A DNA stretch of 29,732 bases, taken from assembly GCA_037139885.1 (NCBI GenBank), contig JBAXFO010000001.1, forward strand, positions 1-29,732, written 5' to 3'. The position numbers and the translations under genes were made by a program. Below the pieces are notes generated by a model. That model did not search any database and had not been told where the DNA came from. It saw only the letters and a list, made by a program, of their open reading frames with translations. This document shows, one piece after another, positions 10,573-29,732 of this stretch. Origin of the DNA: Planctomycetota bacterium (GTDB lineage: Bacteria; Planctomycetota; Planctomycetia; Gemmatales; Gemmataceae). Within the stretch, counting starts at the first letter, position 1, and the number at the start of each line of letters is the position of its first letter.

Positions 10573-10594
10573 GAAGTTGACGAGTATTGAAATC

Positions 10595-10682
10595 GTTCGC
10601 GGCTCTCCGCAGGAGAGCGCTGACAGGACGCCATCGCTGTTAATGGCGCGCCGTCAGCGCTCTCCTGCGGAGAGCCGCGAAC
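10595..10682. repeat. GTTC-tagged REP doublet (REPIN-like), copy 1
   Basis: Perfect 30-bp inverted arms GTTCGCGGCTCTCCGCAGGAGAGCGCTGAC (10595-10624) and its reverse complement (10653-10682). Each arm contains its own hairpin CTCTCC-GCA-GGAGAG. Confidence 0.85.
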
Positions 10683-10693
10683 AATTCCGACCG

Positions 10694-15154: not shown

Positions 15155-15281
15155 GTTAGCGGCTCTCCGCAGGAGAGCGCTGCCGTCACGCCAATACGGC
15201 AAACCAAACGCGATCGTAGCCGACCGAACGGATTTTCTATCGTGGCGCCACGTCATCGCTCTCCTGCGGAGAGCCGCGAAC
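15155..15281. repeat. GTTC-tagged REP doublet (REPIN-like), copy 2, with longer spacer
   Basis: Left arm GTTAGCGGCTCTCCGCAGGAGAGCGCTG from 15155; right arm GTCATCGCTCTCCTGCGGAGAGCCGCGAAC (15252-15281). Between convergent thiG and the ABC permease. Confidence 0.8.
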
Positions 15282-15282
15282 A

Positions 15283-16920
15283 TCATTCCCATTTCAAGCT
15301 CAACCACGCCAACGTCAAAAATGCGACCCCAAAACCCACAAGCACGACACACGCTTCAACAACGATGCCAATTCGCGGCTCCGGGTTAGTGAGCAGTTGT
15401 CGGTAAGCGTCGAGCGCCCAGGCGTGCGGCGTGATCCGGCTAATCTGCTGCATCGTTTCCGGCATCATGGAACGGTCGCCCATCAAACATCCGCTGAGCC
15501 CGGCCAAGACGAGCACCAAAAGCGTTCCATAGATGGCGACCTGGGTTTCGGTGCGTGCGAGGGCGGCCACCCAGAGAGCCAAACCCATCGCCGCGAACGA
15601 TGTCGCCAGCACCACGGCGATCAGCCAGCCCGGCTGCGTCCCCCAGTTCATGCCAAACAGAAACTTGCCCGCGAGCAATAAGCAAAACCCCTGAAACCAC
15701 GACAGCAACAAACAAGGCAACAATTTGCCGATAAGAATCTCCGCACGCGAAACCGGAGCGAGCGACAAGCGTTTGAGCGTCCCCTGCCGGCGCTCGGCGA
15801 CGATCAACCACCCGACCGTGAGCACAAGGAAGAATGCGAACATGACGAGATATGAAGGCACGAGAACTTGATACCGACTGCCCCCGCGGCGCAAGAGGCC
15901 GATGCCGTCTTCTTGAAACGGCGTCGCCTCGGCGCCGGACGCTGGCGTTTCTTGCGAACGCGTCAAGGCGGACCAAGTCTTGGCGGTGAGATTGTAGCGA
16001 GGGAAAAGATTCTGTAAGGCGTTTTGCAGGCCGATGCTCAGTTGCTTTTGTTGCAGCGGCACGAACGGGTTGGTCAGAAACACCTTCACGGGCAACGGCA
16101 GTTGCGGTTCTTTGCCGAGCAAGCCGAGGAATTGCGGATCGCTGATCTTCTCGAACGCTCGACCGATCATCCACGGCATGATGACACGCAGCAAACTCCC
16201 CTGGGCGACCTGGTCGATGATGGCGGCCGCGGTTTGTTGCGTCGGATCGCGCAACACTTCGACATCGAGCAGCGGCATATTCACGCCTTCGCGATGAAAC
16301 GGGTTGAGGCCGTCGAACAGATAGAGCGGCAGGGCGTTTTGGCGTTCGTCGAATAGCCCTCGACCCATGAGGGCGATCGGGTCGCCGGCATGGGGATACA
16401 TGGTCATTTGCGTCATGCCGTCGCGCCAACCGGGCGAGAGGAACGAGCAGCGGGCCACGCGTTTGGAAAATTTGGGCCCGAGAATGAGCACGGCCGCACG
16501 TTTGCCGGATTGGACGAGGGCTTCCGCGTCGGCCCGGCTTGGTATGAGTTCGACGCGAATATCGGCGGTTTCCGCGAGGTCGCTCAGCAGGCGTTCCGAC
16601 CACGACCCGCGCGGAAACCAAAGGCGTGCGTTCGCATGAGCAAAGGCGAGAGCCTCCCAGGGAGCGCTCGACGCCGTGCCGACGACGCCGAGGCCTTCGC
16701 GCAGCATGGCGATCTGATCGAATTGCCGCGGAGGGCCTTCATCGAGAACCAGAATGGAAACGCGTAAGCGATCGGCCGGCTTCTGTCCAAAGCCGTCGCC
16801 CAGCGACACCCCGAGCACGGCGATGAAAATGAGCGGCATCGCCAGCAGGATGACGATCGCCCGCGGATCGCGCGCGAGCAGGCGAAGATCCTTGCGAGCG
16901 AGCGTGGCGATCACACCCAT
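15283..16920 (-). CDS. ABC-2 type transporter permease with large extracytoplasmic domain
   Basis: MGVIATLARKDLRLLARDPRAIVILLAMPL, a long loop, then VPSYLVMFAFF, IVAERRQGTLKRL...APVSRAEILIGKLL and MQQISRITPHAWALDAY, all ABC2_membrane_3-like motifs. Confidence 0.9.
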   Translation of the reverse strand: MGVIATLARKDLRLLARDPRAIVILLAMPLIFIAVLGVSLGDGFGQKPADRLRVSILVLDEGPPRQFDQIAMLREGLGVVGTASSAPWEALAFAHANARLWFPRGSWSERLLSDLAETADIRVELIPSRADAEALVQSGKRAAVLILGPKFSKRVARCSFLSPGWRDGMTQMTMYPHAGDPIALMGRGLFDERQNALPLYLFDGLNPFHREGVNMPLLDVEVLRDPTQQTAAAIIDQVAQGSLLRVIMPWMIGRAFEKISDPQFLGLLGKEPQLPLPVKVFLTNPFVPLQQKQLSIGLQNALQNLFPRYNLTAKTWSALTRSQETPASGAEATPFQEDGIGLLRRGGSRYQVLVPSYLVMFAFFLVLTVGWLIVAERRQGTLKRLSLAPVSRAEILIGKLLPCLLLSWFQGFCLLLAGKFLFGMNWGTQPGWLIAVVLATSFAAMGLALWVAALARTETQVAIYGTLLVLVLAGLSGCLMGDRSMMPETMQQISRITPHAWALDAYRQLLTNPEPRIGIVVEACVVLVGFGVAFLTLAWLSLKWE

Positions 16921-17755: not shown

Positions 17756-18337
17756 TCAACTATGCATCCGCGGTCTTGGGTCGCCGGCCGCGATGGCCTC
17801 GGCTTCTTTGATGGCGAGTTCGCGGAGGCGGGTCTTCACGGTTTCGTCGTCGGCGAAGTCGCGGGCAAGTTTGACGTACGTCCCATGATGCCGGGCTTCC
17901 GATTCGAACAGACTGCCGTAGAACGCCGCCAGTTCGGGGTCATCGTCCTTGAGAGCGTCGGCCAGCAGCGCGAAGCGTTCGCACGAGCGCGCTTCGATCA
18001 ATCCGGCCACAAGCATGCGATCGACCGCCCGACCAGGTTCGTCTTTGCGAATGAGGCTATGAAGCTGGCTCCCGTAAGCGCTTGGCGGAATCTTGCGAAA
18101 TGGGATGTCGCGGCGCTGGAGCAGATCGAGCACCTGGTTAAAGTGGGCCAGTTCTTCCTGCACGATCTCAGACATGGCCCGCACGAGCGGCGGCCGATCG
18201 ACGTACGCGAACAGAAGATTCATCGCCACTCCGGCTGCCTTCTTCTCGCAGTGGGCATGATCGATGAGGAGGATATCCAGGTGGGGCCGAACCTGTTCGA
18301 GCCAGAGCGGCGCGGTCGGTGCATGAAGGCTTAACAT
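17756..18337 (-). CDS. miaE: tRNA-(ms2io6A)-hydroxylase MiaE (ferritin-like di-iron)
   Basis: LLIDHAHCEKKAA, EELAHF, LIEARSCERF and FESEARHH di-iron ligand motifs in a 193-aa protein. Confidence 0.9.
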   Translation of the reverse strand: MLSLHAPTAPLWLEQVRPHLDILLIDHAHCEKKAAGVAMNLLFAYVDRPPLVRAMSEIVQEELAHFNQVLDLLQRRDIPFRKIPPSAYGSQLHSLIRKDEPGRAVDRMLVAGLIEARSCERFALLADALKDDDPELAAFYGSLFESEARHHGTYVKLARDFADDETVKTRLRELAIKEAEAIAAGDPRPRMHS

Positions 18338-19710: not shown

Positions 19711-19814
19711 CGTTCGCGGCTCCGTTCGCGGCTCTTCCGCAGGAGAGCGCTGGCGTGTGGTGACGGTTCAGTGAAGGCCACACGCCAACGCTCTCCTACG
19801 GAGAGCCGCGAACG
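19711..19814. repeat. GTTC-tagged REP doublet (REPIN-like), copy 3, with 12-bp tandem duplication at its left end
   Basis: Left arm GTTCGCGGCTCTTCCGCAGGAGAGCGC from 19724 (one extra T); right arm ends GAGAGCCGCGAAC at 19813. The stem extends inward as TGGCGTGTGG/CCACACGCCA. CGTTCGCGGCTC is repeated exactly at 19711-19722 and 19723-19734. Confidence 0.8.
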
Positions 19815-19874: not shown

Positions 19875-22394
19875 ATGAACGACTCGGACGAAACTCTCGT
19901 GACCGACGCGCAGCGCGGCAACCGCCCCGCTCTTGAGGAACTCGTGCGCCGCACGTCGCGGCTCGTTTACGAACGCCTGTATCTGGAAACCGGCGACGCT
20001 CATCAGGCTGAAGACCTGACGCAGGAAACGTATCTCCAGGCCGTTCGCGCCCTCAAGACGCTGCAACGCCCGGGCCAGTTTCGTTCCTGGCTGTTCACGA
20101 TTGCGGATAATGTCTTAATCGATAGTATTCGCAGCCGACATCGGCAGAAGTGGGCCGAGCCGCCGCGTGCGCCGGCCGAGACGCTCAACGGCGTGGCCGC
20201 GATCGCGGCCACGAAGCAGGGCGTCGTTTCGACCACGAACAGCGAACAGCTCGCGAACGGCAAGATGCGCGGCACGGTCGTGGTGCGGATGCCGCCGGAG
20301 GAGTTGGACGATTTCGTGGCGGCGTTGCGGCGCGATCTCGGCAAGACGGGCGAGCTCAAGAAGCAGGACATTCGCAGTCAGGATGTCACCAAGGTTTATA
20401 CCGATATGGAAAGCGAATTGCGGGGTTTGCGCATCTCCGAAGAGCGCCTCATCGTCATGCTCAAAGACACCAAGGCGAAGCTTTCCGATCTGCTCGCCGT
20501 CGAAACGCAACTGGCGAAGACCCGCACCCGCATCGAGCAATTCGAGGGCGAGCTGCGTTATTACGCCAACCAGGCGGCCATGAGCACGCTCACGATTCAT
20601 CTGCGCGAGAAGCTGATTTTGACCGCGGCCGGGGTCGTCGAGAGCGAGCAGATTCAGGCCGGGGTCGAGGCCGAGGATGTTGAGAAGGCGTTCACCGACA
20701 TGAAGGCGGCCATCGCCGAACTCAAGGGGCGGATCATTCAGTCGGAACTCAAGCAGACATCGATTGGCCGCATTCAGGCGACCCTGCAATTCGAGGTGGC
20801 TCCCGAAGCAGCGGGGCCGATGCGCGATCGTTTGCGGCAGATCGGCACGGTGTCGCGGCTCGATATCGATCGTCTGCAAAACGTCGAAGGGGGGGGCACG
20901 GCGAGCCGCGAGTCGAAGATCAAACGGGGCGACACCAAGTTCATCGTCAACATCTTCGATCTTTCGAGCTACCAGCCGCGCGAGACGGTGAACGCGCGCA
21001 TCGTCGCCGAGGATGTGCCGGCGAGCTATCGCACGATTCGCGACCTGGTCGCCAAGGCGGGCGGTAAGCTTCTGAACACGTCGCTGCAAAACACCGATGT
21101 GCGCAATGTCGTCGCCAGCCTCGATTTTACCGTCCGCCGGGCCGACGAACCGACCGTGCAGACCGCCCTGGCCAAGGCGGGCGAGATTCTCACACGCCGC
21201 GTCGACCGCGCCGCCGAGACGGCGAACGTCACCGATTCGAAGGTTCGCTTCGTGATCCGCTTCGATTCCGTGACCAGCATCACGGCTCGCGAATCGAACA
21301 ACGTCACCCTGGCGGCTCTCGATGTGCCGGCGACCGACCGCGAGCTGCGTGCCGCCATCGCCAAGGTGAAGGGGTCGATCCGCAACGCTCATCTGCAAGA
21401 GACGACGAAAACCGACATCACCGCCACGCTCGATTTCGATGTCCTCCGCGAGCACGAAGCGGAAATCGCCCTGGCTCTCGACAAGGCGGGCGAGATCACC
21501 GCCCGCCGTCGCGATCGCCGGGCGGATTCCGAATCGGTGACCGACGCCAAGGTGAACTTTATCATTACGATGAGTTCCGTGGCCGCCCTGACGCCGCGCG
21601 AGACGGTGAACGTCACCCTCGCCGCGACCGATGTGCCGGCGTCGTTCGCCGCCTTACGCGATGTGGCGACGCGCAACGACGCCCAGGTGCAGACCGCGAA
21701 CCTGACCGAGAACAATCGCCGCGACATTTCCGCTCAGCTCGATTTCACAGCGCTGCGTTCGAAGGACGACGTCATCGCCGCCGCGCTCGCGGCCGCGGGG
21801 GAGCAACTCAATCGCCAGGTCGCCCGGCAAGAGAGCAGTTCGCAAGTGACGGACAAGAAGGTGCAATACCGGGTCAAGTTTGTGCCGACCGACGCGATCC
21901 CGCCGCGCGAGATCAACGCCTTCGAGGTGAAGGTCGACAATGTCGACGAACGGCTCAAATACTTCCAGGCGCGCGTCAAAGAAGTGCAGGGCCGCATCGT
22001 GGACGGTCCGAAGACCGGCAAACAGGCCAACGGCAAGACGATCGCCAGCTTCGTTTTCGATGTGCCGCTCGCGACCGCCGCGACGTTCATCGACGATTTG
22101 AACAAGTCCGGTTATGTCGCGGGGCGAAAGGAAATGAAGAACCCGCAGGCCCCCGAAGGCAAACTGGCGCTCGCCCGCTTCGATGTGATGATGTTCGATG
22201 CGGATTTGCTGCTGCCGCGCGACGAGGGCTTCATGTCGCAGCTTCGCAACTGGATTTCGATCAGTCTGCGGGGCTTGTCGATCGCGGTGAGCTTTGTGAT
22301 CGCGATCTTGTTGTTCCTGGCGCCGTGGGCGATCGTGACGTGGGCGGTGATGGCGATCGTGCGGCGCCGCCGAAGAATGGGGCAAAGGCCGTAG
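19875..22394 (+). CDS. In-frame chimera: ECF sigma-70 region 2 (no region 4) + DUF4349-like domain + tandem ~103-aa repeats + C-terminal TM
   Basis: Residues 1-~105: DETLVTDAQRGNRPALEELVRR...AEDLTQETYLQA...FRSWLFTIADNVLID (sigma-2). Then DUF4349-like VVVRMPPEELDDFV...SQDVTKVYTD...RL...LLAVETQL...RIEQFEGELRYY...MSTLTIHLRE. C-terminal hydrophobic helix followed by RRRRR. A TAAGAT hexamer lies at 19846-19851. Confidence 0.8.
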   Translation: MNDSDETLVTDAQRGNRPALEELVRRTSRLVYERLYLETGDAHQAEDLTQETYLQAVRALKTLQRPGQFRSWLFTIADNVLIDSIRSRHRQKWAEPPRAPAETLNGVAAIAATKQGVVSTTNSEQLANGKMRGTVVVRMPPEELDDFVAALRRDLGKTGELKKQDIRSQDVTKVYTDMESELRGLRISEERLIVMLKDTKAKLSDLLAVETQLAKTRTRIEQFEGELRYYANQAAMSTLTIHLREKLILTAAGVVESEQIQAGVEAEDVEKAFTDMKAAIAELKGRIIQSELKQTSIGRIQATLQFEVAPEAAGPMRDRLRQIGTVSRLDIDRLQNVEGGGTASRESKIKRGDTKFIVNIFDLSSYQPRETVNARIVAEDVPASYRTIRDLVAKAGGKLLNTSLQNTDVRNVVASLDFTVRRADEPTVQTALAKAGEILTRRVDRAAETANVTDSKVRFVIRFDSVTSITARESNNVTLAALDVPATDRELRAAIAKVKGSIRNAHLQETTKTDITATLDFDVLREHEAEIALALDKAGEITARRRDRRADSESVTDAKVNFIITMSSVAALTPRETVNVTLAATDVPASFAALRDVATRNDAQVQTANLTENNRRDISAQLDFTALRSKDDVIAAALAAAGEQLNRQVARQESSSQVTDKKVQYRVKFVPTDAIPPREINAFEVKVDNVDERLKYFQARVKEVQGRIVDGPKTGKQANGKTIASFVFDVPLATAATFIDDLNKSGYVAGRKEMKNPQAPEGKLALARFDVMMFDADLLLPRDEGFMSQLRNWISISLRGLSIAVSFVIAILLFLAPWAIVTWAVMAIVRRRRRMGQRP
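20192..20213. repeat. Perfect 22-bp palindrome at the sigma/DUF4349 junction
   Basis: CGTGGCCGCGA|TCGCGGCCACG is its own reverse complement. Confidence 0.9.
20976..22211 (+). repeat. Four tandem 103-aa (309-bp period) domain repeats inside the DUF4349 protein, plus a looser fifth unit from ~20640
   Basis: Unit starts PRETVN (20976), ARESNN (21285), PRETVN (21594) and PREINA (21903) are exactly 309 bp apart. Shared DVPA, A.LDF, L.KAGE and VTD.KV motifs. Confidence 0.85.
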
Positions 22395-22430
22395 GGCGGG
22401 CTTCGCCTGCTGGCTCAACCCAGCCTACGG
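22389..22430. repeat. GTAG-type REP-like hairpin between convergent genes
   Basis: CCGTAGGGCGGG ... CCCAGCCTACGG form imperfect inverted arms, each carrying GTAG; inner GGCGGGCTTCGCC hairpin. Overlaps the TAG stop of the chimera ORF. Confidence 0.55.
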
Positions 22431-22448
22431 GTTTCTGGATGATCCGGC

Positions 22449-25400
22449 TCAGGGGTCGACGCGGTTGATCTTCGCCTTGACGCCTTCGAGAAGGTCGCTG
22501 GCCTGGGTGAGCATGGTGGTTCGTTCGCTGTGCGAGAGGCCGGGATGGCCCGACTTCTTCAGCGAGCGTTCGTAATAATCGCGAGCTCGATTGTTTTCGC
22601 CCATGAGTTCGAAGGCGTAACCCATGTAGAGGTCGATGCGCGGATCGTTGGGGTAACGCTGGGCGGCCGCTTTGAAGGTTTCGAGCATTTCGCGCCCGTA
22701 TTCGGGCCTTTTGAGTTCGACGTAAACCGAGCCGAGGGTATTCAAGAATTCGACGGGGAGGCGTTCGGGCGGGCGCGTGTTATACGTCGGCGGGCCCGAT
22801 TTGAGCGAACCGAGCAAGACATCGCGAGCGCGGCTGGGCTGCTTGGAATGATGGGCCAACACATAGGCGAGATTGTTGGCGGCGAGGAGATTGTTCGGGT
22901 TGGCGACATTCAGGGATTCGAGCACGGCCTGCGCTTTGGCCCACGATTTCTGCTTAAGGTAAACTTCGGAGAGCAGTTCCTTGGCGGCGGTGGCGTTCAA
23001 ATAGGCTTTGGGGAGTGCTTGGAGTTGCGCTTCGGCGTCGGCCAGCGCGCCGCCGTTCAGGAAGCCGCGGGCCAGGATCATTTGCGACGTCCAGCGTGCG
23101 TTTTCGATGAGCTTATCGCGGGCGGCGGGATCCTTGACCGTTTGGACATTTTTGGCGGCCTGGGTCTGCACGTGCTGGACGAATTCTTGGGCGACTTCGC
23201 GGGCTTCTTTCAGTTGATCGGCATGGCTCAAACAGCGGATCTCGGCGGCGGCGGCTAGGGCGTCGTCCGGCAACTGCTTGCGCCAGGCTTTGGCCCATTT
23301 CAGAGCTTTGGCGGGTTCGCCTTGAACGTCGAGCATGGTCACAAGGTGCAGGTATGCGTCGCGATCGAACGGAGCGGTCGCCACAATCTGTTCGTAGAGA
23401 TCGGCGGCTTTGTTCCATTCTTGGGCGCTTTCGGCAGCCCGCGCCAGGATGCGTTTCGTGCGATTGGAGTTGGGCGCGAGGCGCTTGAGTTCGTCGAGAT
23501 ACTCGCGCAATTCGGCACGCGGTTCGCGAGCCGGGTCGTCGAGGATCATGGATGCGCAGGCGGCGAGGACGTCGACATTCTGCCGATCGACATTGAGAGC
23601 GCGCTGGAGTTGGCCCAACGCGAGATCGATGCGATTGGCCCGAAACCAAAATTCGCCGCGCGTCATGAGGGTGGCGGTGGGATTGATCATGCGGTTGCGA
23701 TCGATGTGGGCTTCCCAAACATTGAGGGCGGAGCCCATGTTGCGGCGTTGCTCCCAGTCGTCGTTGGGGGAGCCGATCTCGTCGCGAACGAGGAAGACGT
23801 ACGCATAGGAAAGCAGGACCGCCGGATCGTCGGGGAACGACGCAGTGATTTGCCTTATGGTGGTGAGGGCGAGTTCGGGGTTTTGATGGGCCAGGGCCAT
23901 CATGGAACGCAGCACGCCCTGTTCGGCGAGAGATTTGACGTTGGTGAAATCGAGAGTGTCGGCGAAGGCGGTGGCGGCCTTGGCGAAATCGCCGGTGGCG
24001 TAAATATCCTCGGCCTGCATCACGCGGGTGAGGCCGACGGTTTCGAAGCGAGTGAGGGCTCCGCGGATGTCCGCGCGTTGCTTCTCGCTGTTGAGGCTGA
24101 GATTGAACAGAGCTTTGTCGATTTGCGGATCGCGGGGCATGTGCCGGGCGATTTTGGCCGGGGAGTTGTCGGTGTTCAGCGTGAGCACGATGGCGGCGGC
24201 GACGCGGCGGAGTTCGGGGGTGATCGTGGTGGTGTCGACGATCTCTTTGAGATACTTCATGGCCTGATCGGGGCGGCGTGAATGGGCCAGCCAGGTGGCG
24301 TAGTAGAGGCGGGCCGATTGATTGTCCGGATACTCTTTGACAAACGACAGAATGAGGCGATCGATGTCCGCCAGCAACGCCTTGGCCCGCTCGGGACTTT
24401 CCGACTGGGCGGCCTCGCGCTCCATCAGGCCGACTTTGAGATTGAGAAGTTCGACGCGATCGGGGAACTCGCTGTGGAGTTTCTGCCAAAGCTCCTCGGC
24501 CTGGGCGCGGCGATCGGTGACGGATAAATGATAGATCCACGAGGTGCGGGCGATGAAGCCGGGCCCGGTGGCGGCGGAGGAGAGTTCCTGAGCGAGCAAG
24601 TTCTTCACGCGCAGCTCGTTCTCGCGGACGATCTCATCGGGGTAGCGTTTAGCGCGAGGATTCTTTACGAAATAGTTCGCGATGTTGCGGCGGGCGTTTT
24701 CGAGGCTGGCGATGACGGTGAGGGCGTAGTAATCTTGCGGGCTGCGCAGGAAGATCCCGAGCCATTCTTTTTCTTGCAGGGTGAGGTCGTTGTATTTCGC
24801 GTAAATGTGCTGAAGCTGGACGAGGCTGACGAGAGCGTCGTCGGGCCGGCCCAGAGCCATGTAGATGTTCGCCAGGCTCGCATGAGCGCGGACGTCTTCA
24901 TCGCCGTCGACGATCTTGATGGCCCGCAGCAGTTTCTCCTTGGCCTTCTCGAGCCGGCCTTCGCGTTCGTCGTACGCCGCTTCGATCACCAGGGCCGTGG
25001 CTTGCGCCTGCGGCACGCGCGTCTCCTGCAAGGCGGTCAAGAACGGCGTCACGGTCGCCCGGCTGTCGTTGTTGAAATAACAGATGTTGGCGGCGAGAAT
25101 GTTAAACGGCAACATCTGTAGGTGGAAATTGCCCGTCGCGTGCGTCTTGCTGTATTTGAGGCCGTCGTCGAGCCATTTCTGGGCCTCGACGCGCAGCTCC
25201 GCCGATTTCTTCGGGTCGCCGCCGCGCTTCACCTCGACCTGAGATTCCCGCATCAACAGTTCGGCGAACTGGGCCACGCGATACGGATCGCAGCGGTCCG
25301 CGTTGAATTGCTCTTTGAGTTGGGGACGCAGGAGTTCGATGCCGGCCTGCCATTCCTTCGGCTGATTGAGGGCGAGCAGCGTTTGCCCCTTGCACATCAA

Positions 25401-26510
25401 ATCGAGAAGGGCGCCGATCAACATCGGTTTGGGGAAGCTGGGGTCTTCCTTTTCGAACTTCTTACGGCAGAAAGCGAGCGTGTCTTCGTAGACGCGAGGC
25501 AACACGGAGGGGTCGATCCGCTTGCGGCGAATCTCGTCGAGAGCGACATCGGCGGCCATGGTGTGCAAACCGAGCACGCCTTCGACATCCCAGGAACTCA
25601 GCAGCTTCATGCCTTCGCCCTGGCGAATGCGGGCGATCGCGCCGTTGAGGTCGTCGAGCAGAATCTTGTCGAGTTCGTCGAGTTCGTCGAGGTATTCCTT
25701 CTCGCGAACGCCGGCGTAGCTCTTCATCAGCCAATGGTGAATGTTGGCGCGGAGAAACTCCGTGCGCCAGATCGGAAACTTGGGGTCGTCGCGCACTTCA
25801 TTGATGAGTTTGGCGGCGTTCTTGATGCGCTCGAGGCTGCGTTTTTCGGATAGAGTCGGACGATGCGTCGTCGGATCGGGTTGTTCGAAGTCGATCTTCG
25901 CGACCATATATTTCGCACGCGAATCGTCCGGTTTGATTTCGAGAATCGCTCGCGAATAGCGATCGACCTGATCCCAGGCAATCGGGTTCGACATGAGCGC
26001 CAGCCGCAGCGCATCGAGCTGGACATTGAAGTCCTTCGGGAGAAAGTGCGTCGCCGCTCCGCGCAAAAGGCCGGCGGCTTCGTTGCGGTCGTTGTCGTCG
26101 CGGATCGACATGATGCTGCGGAACTTCTCCCCCGTCACCGAATCGGTCGAGTCGGCGAGCGGCGTCCCCGCCGCGGCGGCGAGGGCGAAGTGCTTGTCGC
26201 GGATGGCTTTGGCTTTCAGGTAGAAAACTTTGCCCGCGGTCTCCTTGGCGACATCGAGCTCCAGGCCATGGGGGCCGTCGAGTCGCTTCTTCGCGTTCTC
26301 AAGCAGGACGCAAGCCTGATCGTATTTGACCGCGGCGTCTTTATGGTTTCCCTGCTGTTCGAGCGCTTTGGCTTCCTTGTCGTAGAGCCGCTCGGCCGCC
26401 TCAAGAGACGGAATGGGATTCCGCTCCTTGAAGACGAGAAAGCCGACATAACCGCACATGCCGGCAAGAGCCAGCAGCATCAACAAGCGAAACTTCGCTT
26501 TACCGCTCAT
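22449..26510 (-). CDS. Very large (1353 aa) membrane-anchored TPR/alpha-solenoid protein
   Basis: Basic N-terminus plus hydrophobic helix (FRLLMLLALAGMCGYVGFLVF), then mostly amphipathic helical repeats with TPR signatures (AADLYEQIVATAPFDRDAY, LAANNLAY, YPNDPRIDLYMGYAFELMGENNRARDYYE). TACAAT at 26572-26567 upstream. Confidence 0.85.
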   Translation of the reverse strand: MSGKAKFRLLMLLALAGMCGYVGFLVFKERNPIPSLEAAERLYDKEAKALEQQGNHKDAAVKYDQACVLLENAKKRLDGPHGLELDVAKETAGKVFYLKAKAIRDKHFALAAAAGTPLADSTDSVTGEKFRSIMSIRDDNDRNEAAGLLRGAATHFLPKDFNVQLDALRLALMSNPIAWDQVDRYSRAILEIKPDDSRAKYMVAKIDFEQPDPTTHRPTLSEKRSLERIKNAAKLINEVRDDPKFPIWRTEFLRANIHHWLMKSYAGVREKEYLDELDELDKILLDDLNGAIARIRQGEGMKLLSSWDVEGVLGLHTMAADVALDEIRRKRIDPSVLPRVYEDTLAFCRKKFEKEDPSFPKPMLIGALLDLMCKGQTLLALNQPKEWQAGIELLRPQLKEQFNADRCDPYRVAQFAELLMRESQVEVKRGGDPKKSAELRVEAQKWLDDGLKYSKTHATGNFHLQMLPFNILAANICYFNNDSRATVTPFLTALQETRVPQAQATALVIEAAYDEREGRLEKAKEKLLRAIKIVDGDEDVRAHASLANIYMALGRPDDALVSLVQLQHIYAKYNDLTLQEKEWLGIFLRSPQDYYALTVIASLENARRNIANYFVKNPRAKRYPDEIVRENELRVKNLLAQELSSAATGPGFIARTSWIYHLSVTDRRAQAEELWQKLHSEFPDRVELLNLKVGLMEREAAQSESPERAKALLADIDRLILSFVKEYPDNQSARLYYATWLAHSRRPDQAMKYLKEIVDTTTITPELRRVAAAIVLTLNTDNSPAKIARHMPRDPQIDKALFNLSLNSEKQRADIRGALTRFETVGLTRVMQAEDIYATGDFAKAATAFADTLDFTNVKSLAEQGVLRSMMALAHQNPELALTTIRQITASFPDDPAVLLSYAYVFLVRDEIGSPNDDWEQRRNMGSALNVWEAHIDRNRMINPTATLMTRGEFWFRANRIDLALGQLQRALNVDRQNVDVLAACASMILDDPAREPRAELREYLDELKRLAPNSNRTKRILARAAESAQEWNKAADLYEQIVATAPFDRDAYLHLVTMLDVQGEPAKALKWAKAWRKQLPDDALAAAAEIRCLSHADQLKEAREVAQEFVQHVQTQAAKNVQTVKDPAARDKLIENARWTSQMILARGFLNGGALADAEAQLQALPKAYLNATAAKELLSEVYLKQKSWAKAQAVLESLNVANPNNLLAANNLAYVLAHHSKQPSRARDVLLGSLKSGPPTYNTRPPERLPVEFLNTLGSVYVELKRPEYGREMLETFKAAAQRYPNDPRIDLYMGYAFELMGENNRARDYYERSLKKSGHPGLSHSERTTMLTQASDLLEGVKAKINRVDP

Positions 26511-26634
26511 GACGTGTTTCCGAACTGAAAAGGCGTCGTTCGACGACGGGGTTGGTCTGGTGATTCATTGTAAAACCCACTCCGTCCACGACGGAGAAGT
26601 TTCGATAAAGGTTTGCGGCGGGCCGGCATCGGCC

Positions 26635-28248
26635 TCAACGTTCGACGAGAATCGGCAATCGCTCACTACTCATTCTAACGTCGGGCGGCAGGTGTTTGCC
26701 GCGCAATTCGAAATCGAGCGGGGCGAGCAGCCTCTGTTCGAGCAGCGGCCATTGTTCGCGGGAGGCGTTGGATGTCACCAACACGGTCACGCTCGGGGGG
26801 CTGCGGTCGAAGGTGGCGTAGAGCTGTTGCAGCCAAGACTGTTGTTCATGTTGGAGCGGCCGAAAGGTGTAATGCCAATAGTAAACCGCCATGTTTTGCG
26901 AGGGGCCGACGTTGAAACCAAAGCGCTGCACCGTCCGCTGAGGGTCGTCGCCCAACGGCACGGCCGCACGACTTGCGACGTCTTCGGGCAACTGCAAGAC
27001 GTCGCGAATGCACACCTCGGGATGATGCTTGCGGTCCTCGCCGTTCTCGCTGTGCACGACGTAGACATTCGCGCTGACGTTCATTTCCGGCGAATAGAAG
27101 CGGCGGTAGAACAAATCGACCGGTTGATAGGGCAGCTTGGCGCGAATTTCCTTTTCGGGGACGATCGTCTCCATCTCCCAAGTCAACGGCCTCTTGCCCA
27201 CTCTTTCCCAAAGGAGCGTCTTGGGCATGTTGGCGAACGAGTCTCGCAAGGGGGCGTAGGTATTGGTCGGGCCGAGAATCATGTGCGCGAGCAAACCAAG
27301 CTGAAGCGCCAGAGCGACGCCGAGCAGCAGCGTCACGCGCCAAATGCGCGGCGCTGGCGAGGCTTTCGGCTCGTCGCCGCCGGTCGCAGCGGGTTCGGCA
27401 GGAGCTTCGGGGGGCGCGAGAAACCAGAGCAGGCCGAAGAACATAAGGATGCCCAGCGGCAACGTGAACATCGCCGGCACGTCGTGCATTTTGGTCGAAA
27501 TCCAGGTGGGGCCGAAACTGACCAATCCGAGGGCCATGAGAAGCACGCGCACGACATTGGTCGCGATCGCCACCGGAACCGCCAGAACCATGAGCAATGT
27601 CCCACGCAGCCAGCCGACCCGTCCAAGATAACTCACGAGCGCGGCCATGGCGAGAAACGCCATGAGTTGGCGGACGCCGCTGCATTCCTGGCCGACATAG
27701 AGCGTTTCGTTGACGCCGGCGATATGGATCGTATTGCCGCGGCGGAACGACAAGACAAACCAGCTCACGACTTCGCCGCTGATGGCCGTGATGATGTCTT
27801 GCAGCCCCACGGTGATGCGGGTCATCAAGGCCACAGGAAGCGGGAACAAGAAAATGAGGAAGAACGTCGGGAACAGAAGGCGATTGGCCCAGCGACGGCC
27901 GCCGAGCATGACGGCCATCCCCCGGAGCGTCAAAAATAGGGCGATCATTTCAATCGGCAAGAAGCGCAGCACGACGCCGAGAAGATGCAGGATGAGCCCG
28001 ATTATCAGGGTGATCGACCCGAGCGCGGTTTCGCCTTGGCCGGGCAGGGGATGCGCCGCGACGATGAGCCATGTGAGCCAAATGCTGATGGGGACGATGA
28101 AGAAGCCGTGCGTATAACTGCTGTCCAGAATCCAGATGCGTACGAGTTGGGAAAAGAGCGGCACGAACAAGCCGATGAGGCAGACCACGCCCACGAGCAA
28201 CCCGAGAGTTGGGCGGGGGTTCGAGGGTGCAGCGGCGCTTGACGTCAT
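26635..28248 (-). CDS. Exosortase/archaeosortase-family transpeptidase fused to an EpsI-like periplasmic domain
   Basis: N-terminal ~8-TM domain with SSYTHGFFIVP, FLIFLFPLP and the catalytic Cys-Arg-His set VGQECSGVRQL, TNVVRV, KMHD. C-terminal soluble domain with HHPEVC and VYYWHY, as in EpsI-type domains. Confidence 0.88.
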   Translation of the reverse strand: MTSSAAAPSNPRPTLGLLVGVVCLIGLFVPLFSQLVRIWILDSSYTHGFFIVPISIWLTWLIVAAHPLPGQGETALGSITLIIGLILHLLGVVLRFLPIEMIALFLTLRGMAVMLGGRRWANRLLFPTFFLIFLFPLPVALMTRITVGLQDIITAISGEVVSWFVLSFRRGNTIHIAGVNETLYVGQECSGVRQLMAFLAMAALVSYLGRVGWLRGTLLMVLAVPVAIATNVVRVLLMALGLVSFGPTWISTKMHDVPAMFTLPLGILMFFGLLWFLAPPEAPAEPAATGGDEPKASPAPRIWRVTLLLGVALALQLGLLAHMILGPTNTYAPLRDSFANMPKTLLWERVGKRPLTWEMETIVPEKEIRAKLPYQPVDLFYRRFYSPEMNVSANVYVVHSENGEDRKHHPEVCIRDVLQLPEDVASRAAVPLGDDPQRTVQRFGFNVGPSQNMAVYYWHYTFRPLQHEQQSWLQQLYATFDRSPPSVTVLVTSNASREQWPLLEQRLLAPLDFELRGKHLPPDVRMSSERLPILVER

Positions 28249-28325
28249 GCGAAGAGCGTCCTCGATTCGCGACCAAGTCGCGGCGAAGCCCTCCTTTCGC
28301 GAAGGGCCTCACAAGCAACGATCTT

Positions 28326-28355
28326 AGTCTAGCGGACGATCTGGCGTTTCCGCAA
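28326..28355 (-). promoter_or_regulatory. Sigma70-type promoter for the exosortase gene
   Basis: Minus strand reads TTGCGG (28355-28350), 18-nt spacer, TAGACT (28331-28326). Confidence 0.45.
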
Positions 28356-28361
28356 GGGAAG

Positions 28362-29462
28362 TCAATCGATACTCAACGAACCCGGACTCGGCGCGGCCGG
28401 CAAAAACGTCGGCAACGGCACGGCTGGTATCGAAATCTCATCCGAGAGGGGCTGCGGCGGAGCCGAGGGAAGCGGCGGCGGCGGTGCGATGTTCGCGCTG
28501 CGCGGCGACTGAAATCCGCTCGGCATGTTGACGTGAAACGGCTGCTCCACCGAACTGACGATCATGCCGGAACCCGCTCCGATGCTGCCCGTGGAGTCGT
28601 TGAGGGGCAGGCCGCGAGCGACCGACGGATTGACTTCCGGCGGGCGTTCGAGTTCGCGGGAGCGACGCCGCACATCCTGGCGTTCGCGATCCTTCTTGGA
28701 TTTGGGCCCTTCGTCCATGCGTTCGAGGGCGGCCTGGGCTTTTTGCAGGCCCGGTTCGTATTTGAGAGCCATGGCGTAACTGTCGCGGGCTTCCATCCAG
28801 CGTCCTTGCGCGGCCTGGATAAAGCCGATGTTGCACAGGCCTTGAGCCTTGTTGACTGATTTCTCAAACGCCGCCAGGCTTTCGGGATATTGGCCGAGCT
28901 GGGCCAGCGCCATGCCGAGGTTCGCCCAGGCCCGCTTGCTCTTCGGATCGCATTCGACAGCCTTGCGCAAACTCTTCTCGGCGGCTTCGAATTTGCCGCG
29001 GGTGTAATAGCCGTATCCCAGGTCGTTGTGGGCGTCCGCGTCTTTGGGATTGGCCGCGAGCAGCTTGTTGTATTCGTCGAGAGCTTTGTCGAAGTCGCCC
29101 TTGCGATCGTAGAGCATGGCCAGATGCCGGGCGCAGGCGAGATCGCGACGCGGATCGAGTTGCCGGATTTGTTCGTAGTAGATGATCGCTTCGGAGATCT
29201 TGCCCGATTTCTCCATGAGCTGAGCGGTCGCCAGGCAAGCGTCGATCTTCTTTTGTTTGGGAAGTTCCAGCGACGTTCCCGATCCGGAACCGTCGATCGG
29301 CGCCTGGCTCATGGCCGGGAACATGCTTTGGGAAGACTGCGCATTCGAGGAGTTGGGCGCTTGCGACGAGCCGGTCGGACCGGAGGGCAGAAACTGGCAG
29401 CCCGAATTGCCGATCAAGGCAGCCGTAATGAGCACGGCCGCACGACGGATGTGCATCCTCAT
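28362..29462 (-). CDS. TPR-repeat lipoprotein (TadD/PilF-like TPR pattern) with Ser/Gln linker and Pro-rich tail
   Basis: Strong RBS GAGGAGGGGG. Signal peptide ending GNSG-C. About five TPRs (LAMLYDRKGDFDKALDEY...NPKDADAHNDLGYGYYTRGKFEAAEKSLRKAVECDPKSKRAWANLGMALAQLG). Poly-Pro C-terminus. Confidence 0.85.
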   Translation of the reverse strand: MRMHIRRAAVLITAALIGNSGCQFLPSGPTGSSQAPNSSNAQSSQSMFPAMSQAPIDGSGSGTSLELPKQKKIDACLATAQLMEKSGKISEAIIYYEQIRQLDPRRDLACARHLAMLYDRKGDFDKALDEYNKLLAANPKDADAHNDLGYGYYTRGKFEAAEKSLRKAVECDPKSKRAWANLGMALAQLGQYPESLAAFEKSVNKAQGLCNIGFIQAAQGRWMEARDSYAMALKYEPGLQKAQAALERMDEGPKSKKDRERQDVRRRSRELERPPEVNPSVARGLPLNDSTGSIGAGSGMIVSSVEQPFHVNMPSGFQSPRSANIAPPPPLPSAPPQPLSDEISIPAVPLPTFLPAAPSPGSLSID

Positions 29463-29606
29463 GAGTCCCCCTCCTCAGCTCTCGTGAGCCGATCTCTGAA
29501 GTCGCAACAAGGAATCCCCCCCTTGTCGCGGCTGAATGAATACCCGAACGAGCGATCCTTGCAAGACCGAAATCGAAGGATTCGCCCGGATTGCGTCGAT
29601 TTTGTC

Positions 29607-29661
29607 GAGCGACGCTTCGTCGAGGCGTGTTAACGTCACACCCTTCCACGAAGCGTCGCTC
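29607..29661. repeat. Long intergenic inverted repeat (REP-like hairpin, separate family)
   Basis: Perfect 14-bp arms GAGCGACGCTTCGT (29607-29620) and ACGAAGCGTCGCTC (29648-29661), with imperfect inner pairing. Confidence 0.7.
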
Positions 29662-29732
29662 TGGCAGGCGTTCCTCGGCATGCGATCTTCGGTTAGAACG
29701 AAGGCGACGGGAAGTTGCCGCCGCCGCCGAAG

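Follow-up and report, generated by a model that had tools for sequence, protein, structure and literature searches.

The window analysed here is a stretch of 29,732 nucleotides from a Planctomycetota bacterium of the family Gemmataceae (assembly GCA_037139885.1, contig JBAXFO010000001.1, positions 1 to 29,732 of the forward strand), and its open reading frame (ORF) at 19875-22394, which encodes the protein P0001, joins region 2 of an extracytoplasmic function (ECF) sigma factor in frame to a DUF4349 envelope protein. This ORF is an ordinary broken regulator pair and not a new kind of protein. It is very probably a recent, strain-specific deletion allele of the ordinary Gemmataceae two-gene ECF sigma/anti-sigma module, which lost about 1.97 kb in vivo and is most likely null. 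We read it as a strain-specific deletion and not as a conserved sigma-2-only architecture because close relatives keep two genes and no protein beyond its sister allele shares the fusion. The first-pass annotation, made from the sequence alone, had proposed that an operon of a sigma factor and an anti-sigma/DUF4349 protein lost sigma-4, the anti-sigma domain and a transmembrane (TM) segment in frame, and had named intact two-gene versions in close relatives as the observation that would reduce the case to a strain-specific deletion. Such versions were found, and a comparison with them located both sigma-4 and a zf-HC2/TM segment between the two halves.

The domain content of P0001 was determined using Pfam, NCBIfam and tblastn, which bore out the order already read from the translation (a region-2 start, no sigma-4, and DUF4349 after it). 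Sigma70_r2 (PF04542) was identified at residues 23-90 (E 3.5e-15), and DUF4349 (PF14257) was identified from residue 100 in five matched stretches (E 6.5e-46), with a score of 156.8 bits against a gathering cut-off of 27.7. Sigma70_r4 and Sigma70_r4_2 gave no Pfam match in P0001, and the NCBIfam ECF sigma models covered just its first 90-117 residues, far under their full-length cut-offs. No tblastn match was obtained in any frame of the window for the sigma-4 half of the nearest intact sigma factor (P0123) or for the N-terminal 544 residues of the intact anti-sigma protein (P0122). The sigma remnant uses the start codon of the intact sigma gene and keeps region 2, while the end of the linker and sigma-4 are gone; it also carries a derived change, R93W. 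The anti-sigma remnant comprises an N-terminally truncated DUF4349, a coiled-coil hairpin, tandem ACT/ferredoxin-like repeats of about 103 residues and a C-terminal anchor, and more diverged units of the 103-residue type flank three of the repeats (20975-21641) on both sides.

The best DUF4349 stretch of P0001 covers profile positions 16-172 of 213, and that of the intact allele begins at position 3. The fusion had been described as entering the middle of DUF4349; its entry point is close to the N-terminal end of the domain (position 16 in a profile of 213), and it is the anti-sigma protein as a whole that is entered in its middle (residue 545 of 1274). Pfam and a Kyte-Doolittle hydrophobicity window, used in place of a dedicated signal-peptide predictor, revealed neither a zf-HC2/anti-sigma domain nor an N-terminal TM segment in P0001, and the same window revealed no export signal (signal peptide, lipobox or N-terminal TM). 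The single C-terminal TM segment followed by RRRRR, with no TM between sigma-2 and DUF4349, was confirmed as the sole hydrophobic segment (residues 793-830). A scan for sigma-70 type promoters upstream of the fused ORF gave nothing useful.

Both parental genes were found intact in close strains. The 90% identity cluster of P0001 has two further members, namely P0121 (839 aa), from contig L004 of the ENA MEGAHIT assembly ERZ27300101, and P0122 (1274 aa), from contig L003 of a Logan assembly. The DNA of L003 is 98.7% identical to that of the window, with window positions 20201-29732 corresponding to L003 1731-11263, and its positions 1-1730, which have no counterpart in the window, cover the first 1631 nt of the anti-sigma gene together with 99 nt upstream of it. 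In P0122, a cytoplasmic zf-HC2-like domain is followed by a TM segment (83-111), a linker of about 410 residues, a multi-repeat DUF4349 domain on the extracytoplasmic side and a C-terminal TM segment. Its zf-HC2 match at residues 6-33 is weak (E 2e-4, just under the cut-off), and that of the homologue P0010 is clear (E 1.2e-8). The C-terminal anchor is the same as in P0001, and residues 110-839 of P0001 differ from the C-terminal part of P0122 at 3 of 730 positions.

The nearest intact sigma factor, P0123, has 184 residues with Sigma70_r2 and Sigma70_r4_2 (the latter at 126-177) and is 96% identical to residues 1-108 of P0001. It was found on five short contigs (L005-L008 and L021), which are 90-93% identical to the window in DNA up to base 20202 and past this base encode sigma-4 and, after a 110-nt spacer, the beginning of the anti-sigma protein; L021 was the only additional intact allele retrieved by a metagenome scan with a sigma-side 25-mer. 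The same two separate genes were present at a 73%-identical locus (L001). The fused and intact loci share their gene neighbours, which encode an aminotransferase on the upstream side and a TPR protein of 1353 aa on the downstream side.

In a composite of intact alleles, built for statistics only, the missing segment measures 1970 nt, to which the sigma gene contributes 227 nt, the spacer 110 nt and the anti-sigma gene 1633 nt. The reading frame is preserved regardless of the spacer length, as the sigma part stops at codon position 1 and the anti-sigma part restarts at codon position 2; the chance of such an in-frame outcome is 1 in 3. The coordinates of the fused ORF and its parts are listed in Table 1.

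Table 1. Features of the fused locus (window coordinates)
Feature	Position	Strand	Basis or detail
Chimeric ORF P0001, 839 aa: sigma-2 remnant in frame with the C-terminal 730 residues of the anti-sigma/DUF4349 protein	19875..22394	+	
ECF sigma gene remnant, codons 1-109 plus one base	19875..20202	+	
22-bp palindrome made by the deletion	20192..20213	.	left arm 20192-20202 (sigma), right arm 20203-20213 (anti-sigma)
Deletion breakpoint with 2-nt microhomology (GA)	20201..20202	+	intact sigma ...GCCGCGA/ATGGGG, intact anti-sigma ...AAGTTGA/TTGCGG
Anti-sigma gene remnant, residues 545-1274 of intact P0122	20203..22394	+	
Three 309-nt (103-aa) internal repeat units in the DUF4349 ectodomain	20975..21641	+	internal repeat alignments
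C-terminal membrane anchor, sole hydrophobic segment (residues 793-830), then RRRRR	22251..22364	+	

The fusion was confined to a single clade in all collections searched. The closest full-length homologues have 1000-1440 residues, occur in Gemmataceae and other Planctomycetota, and mostly combine zf-HC2 (PF13490) with DUF4349; among the best 120 of 257 homologues (E <= 0.001), Sigma70_r2 and DUF4349 were combined only in P0001. When 18 genomes of the family were searched, nine had a sigma match 1.3-2.4 kb upstream of a DUF4349 match in separate ORFs, and only the genome of the window (G000) yielded one contiguous match. Residues 1-330 retrieved no other junction-spanning protein among the best 150 matches of a phmmer search against 1.84 billion representatives, a search for shorter junction-spanning gene fragments found none, and the junction 33-mer (with Y at 20204) was absent from 185,579 species genomes besides the window's own. 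The fused domain order is known only in P0001 and P0121, which belong to one 90% cluster, and did not recur in independent lineages. The conserved, membrane-tethered sigma-2-only architecture that had been envisaged is not supported by this distribution, as all other relatives have two genes. The apparent new regulator is mainly a clean negative, and the appropriate annotation for the locus is a disrupted or chimeric gene, not a new family.

The two deletion-bearing contigs were compared with each other and with the intact strain. The haplotype of L004 differs from the window by 38 substitutions over 16.3 kb, one of them inside the palindrome, with no gaps and an identical junction. Over 8 kb, the window and L004 share 96 differences from L003 and have 6 and 4 private differences, respectively, giving the tree ((window, L004), L003). 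By this sequence comparison, the deletion-bearing contigs are a tight clade whose members split from each other after their divergence from the intact strain.

The position of the deletion is marked by a palindrome. With a slash at the breakpoint, the intact sigma gene reads ...CGTGGCCGCGA/ATGGGG... (five contigs), the intact anti-sigma gene reads ...AAGTTGA/TTGCGGCCACG..., and the window reads CGTGGCCGCGA/TCGCGGCCACG. The intact sigma gene aligns to the window up to 20202, and the intact anti-sigma gene aligns from 20201. Both arms of the palindrome are already present in the intact genes, where they form a 10/11 inverted repeat with about 2 kb between them, and the breakpoints lie at the inner edges of the arms. 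Since both arms exist in the intact genes, the palindrome arose from the deletion; the loss did not take place at an existing palindrome, as the first-pass annotation had it, and the palindrome was created when the deletion abutted two inverted 11-mers. No other zero-spacer palindrome in the window is as long, and 22 bp was reached somewhere in 5 of 200 first-order Markov shuffles. For endpoint pairs 500-4000 nt apart in the locus, an abutting inverted repeat of at least 10/11 is found in a fraction of 2.9e-5, and one of 11/11 in 9.5e-7. As such a repeat is expected by chance at only 2.9e-5, the inverted repeat very probably took part in the deletion event.

The 22-bp palindrome is perfect in the window, as had been noted, while the sister assembly L004 has the same junction at 21/22. 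Base 20204 is T in L004 and in the intact L003 and C in the window; because L004 and L003 both have T, the ancestral junction was 21/22 palindromic. The C of the window is derived and synonymous (ATT to ATC), and it makes the palindrome perfect. Selection for a more stable hairpin was rejected as the cause of this change, as both alleles were predicted to fold into the same 9-bp stem with base 20204 in the tetraloop (-14 kcal/mol for the window and -15 kcal/mol for L004). A transposon or hairpin-opening footprint (P nucleotides) was also rejected as the origin of the palindrome, as both arms pre-exist in the intact genes. Nothing pointed to a role of repetitive extragenic palindromic (REP)-like elements, and the breakpoints lie inside coding sequence. 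A REP-like inverted doublet is located at 19724-19813, just upstream of the sigma start, and its family recurs in the window (also at 10593-10687). A different, GC-rich repeat is located at L003:1-43, in the sigma/anti-sigma spacer of the intact strain, where it coincides with the end of contig L003, and it matches at least five other contigs of the genome.

A mutational route can be proposed from these features. The two arms would pair into a transient stem in single-stranded template DNA, and the stem would juxtapose both GA dinucleotides, allowing the polymerase to go on along the far arm and skip the loop (slipped or copy-choice synthesis). The joined arms would form a quasi-palindrome, which the later synonymous T-to-C change at 20204 would perfect in the lineage of the window; this change could be due to chance or to a template-switch mutation. 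Glickman and Ripley reportedly described, in 1984, deletions whose endpoints are determined by palindromic or inverted-repeat structures. Here too, the endpoints fall on an inverted repeat and have a short direct microhomology in common, and a later point change makes an imperfect palindrome perfect, as in quasipalindrome mutagenesis. Template-switch mutations at quasipalindromes are attributed to Ripley 1982 and to Dutra and Lovett 2006 as far as these are summarised in PMC7202029, and a perfected palindrome is the outcome expected of this process (PMC7202029). Unlike in both of these classes, only the loop was removed here and both arms were kept; unlike in quasipalindrome mutagenesis, the base that perfects the palindrome is predicted to lie in the tetraloop, where it adds no stability to the hairpin, and a single substitution is no proof of templating. 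The junction is an unusually clear natural case of deletion endpoints set by a short inverted repeat, with the palindrome perfected later.

Most likely, the fused allele is null for both genes, with an ORF that has yet to decay. Without sigma-4, its product cannot recognise promoters or act as a sigma factor. The DUF4349 part cannot be exported because both an N-terminal TM and a signal peptide are missing; the ectodomain would remain cytoplasmic, tethered by the C-terminal anchor. An AlphaFold (AF2) model of residues 515-800 of intact P0122 (33-sequence alignment, mean predicted local distance difference test (pLDDT) score of 85.1) showed two beta-alpha-beta-beta-alpha-beta units with a long helical hairpin between them. 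In the first unit, beta1 corresponds to residues 521-531 and alpha1 to residues 534-546, and the junction at residue 545 deletes beta1 and nearly all of alpha1. When the DUF4349 model was compared with the PDB by Foldseek, nothing was returned at E <= 0.001, and the only likeness was weak and to ACT domains (such as SerB2, GcvR-like and Rel ACT). No second DUF4349 locus was found in G000, and the next-best sigma factor in this genome is 33% identical to P0123. The deletion may have removed the only copy of the signalling module in G000. Several relatives carry two pairs of sigma factor and DUF4349-type anti-sigma factor, whereas G000 has none besides the fused locus.

An artefact of assembly or library preparation, in which the genome carries the intact genes and the contig was falsely joined at the palindrome, is unlikely, and we give it only a slight chance. 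The genome of the window is a fragmented metagenome-assembled genome (1207 contigs, 91% complete, 5.7% contamination), and palindromes may disturb assemblers. However, a de Bruijn misjoin would need a k-mer overlap, and the flanks of the junction have only GA in common in direct orientation. Palindrome-type chimeras are generally known to yield inverted joins and not a co-linear deletion. The same junction is present in a separate MEGAHIT k141 contig (L004) with another haplotype and another base within the palindrome; on this ground, of the two origins that the first-pass annotation had left side by side, loss in vivo is favoured over a misjoin. Neither the missing 1.97 kb nor a sigma-4 piece of this gene occurs as an orphan contig in the genome. 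Searches for the missing DNA elsewhere in G000 (queries P0002:1-506, the DNA of L003:1-1730, and P0123) returned REP-like or weak matches only, and at the fused locus only residues 1-119 of P0123 were matched. An ancestral fusion, from which the two-gene form of the relatives arose by insertion or fission, is a formal possibility that we consider scarcely credible, as the same species (L003), the same genus and at least eight other genera have the two-gene form, and the fused form does not have the parts whose homologues occur in all relatives (sigma-4, zf-HC2, TM, and beta1/alpha1 of DUF4349).

Sigma-2 bears the main RNA polymerase core-binding surface in the sigma-70 family, and P0001 might accordingly be imagined as a functional new protein, in which a C-terminally anchored cytoplasmic sigma-2 binds the polymerase core as a decoy, or has some other role, and is kept by selection. 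Such a protein would be in keeping with an in-frame, fully open fusion that occurs in two haplotypes, and with the single-nucleotide polymorphisms (SNPs) between these haplotypes in the DUF4349 part (5 synonymous and 0 non-synonymous). It is nevertheless improbable, as the fusion is limited to one clade with a divergence of about 0.1-0.2%, and all other relatives, including the 98.7%-identical strain, keep two genes. The in-frame outcome has the 1-in-3 chance given above, the first DUF4349 domain is cut inside its fold, the ectodomain is stranded in the cytoplasm, and two of the four changes in the sigma-2 part are non-synonymous (S71T in L004 and R93W in the window). The ECF promoter, presumably autoregulated, would also have lost its cognate sigma factor, for which G000 offers no closer substitute than the 33%-identical one. 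A selected, tail-anchored sigma-2/DUF4349 decoy, a natural record of loop excision followed by template-switch perfection of the palindrome, or both together, we regard as a long shot.

Several observations weigh against a recent null allele formed by deletion in vivo. The SNPs of the fused ORF (7 synonymous to 2 non-synonymous) have a ratio like that of the neighbouring intact genes (20 synonymous to 5 non-synonymous) and unlike that of free decay; neutral decay predicts about 75% non-synonymous changes, and P is about 0.001 on the assumption that every change is a new and independent mutation. Constraint of some kind, or older polymorphism imported by recombination, may lie behind this ratio, which comprises few SNPs (n = 9). 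The junction is supported by two assemblies whose samples are possibly related. We infer stem-assisted slippage, and an 11-bp stem over a 2-kb loop is weak. With these points included, a strain-specific deletion allele is still the reading that we hold very probable.

The fused locus was compared with known systems. Relative to ECF sigma/class I (zf-HC2) anti-sigma modules, represented by P0123 and P0122, it shares both sequence halves and the gene neighbours, but it is one ORF from which sigma-4, the spacer, the anti-sigma domain and the first TM have been lost, along with the linker (about 410 residues) and the beta1/alpha1 elements of its first DUF4349 domain. Of the features that define ECF (group IV) sigma-70 factors, P0001 has sigma-2 and not sigma-4, and the N-terminal anti-sigma domain followed by a TM, which defines class I anti-sigma factors, is absent from P0001 and present in P0122. 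ECF41/42-type sigma factors have fused C-terminal regulatory extensions, keep both sigma-2 and sigma-4, and form conserved families. P0001 resembles them as a sigma domain followed by a non-sigma domain in one polypeptide, but it has no sigma-4 and is limited to a single strain clade. Canonical DUF4349 (PF14257) proteins are exported, often lipoprotein, tail-anchored envelope proteins (PMC10924467). P0001 scores above the gathering threshold and has the C-terminal hydrophobic anchor of these proteins; unlike them, it has the anchor only and no signal peptide or N-terminal TM, and its domain begins at profile position 16 and is interrupted by the tandem ACT-like repeats of about 103 residues.

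The intact parent family (zf-HC2, TM, long linker, repeat-expanded DUF4349 and C-terminal TM) is widespread in Planctomycetota, with 387 representatives at E <= 1e-30, and members with this order include P0122 and homologues on L001, L003 and L030-L038. A planctomycete anti-sigma family with a DUF4349 sensor expanded by tandem ACT-like repeats has almost no coverage in the literature, in which three papers were found to mention DUF4349.

The SNPs between the window and L004 were unevenly distributed. Five of the 38 SNPs lie within 120 nt to the left of or at the junction (20085, 20091, 20126, 20151 and 20204), where about 0.3 would be expected from the overall density, and two of these five are non-synonymous; the same five make up more than half of the nine SNPs of the fused ORF. 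Relaxed constraint or mutagenesis near the palindrome is a possible source of this cluster. Dense SNPs were also found in a MiaE-like gene at 17972-18257 (11 in 285 nt, 10 of them synonymous) and at 15266-15327 (5 in 62 nt), and these two clusters resemble short segments imported by recombination from a diverged strain. Relative to L003, a single-base deletion is located in an intergenic region at about position 29592 of the window, near the contig end.

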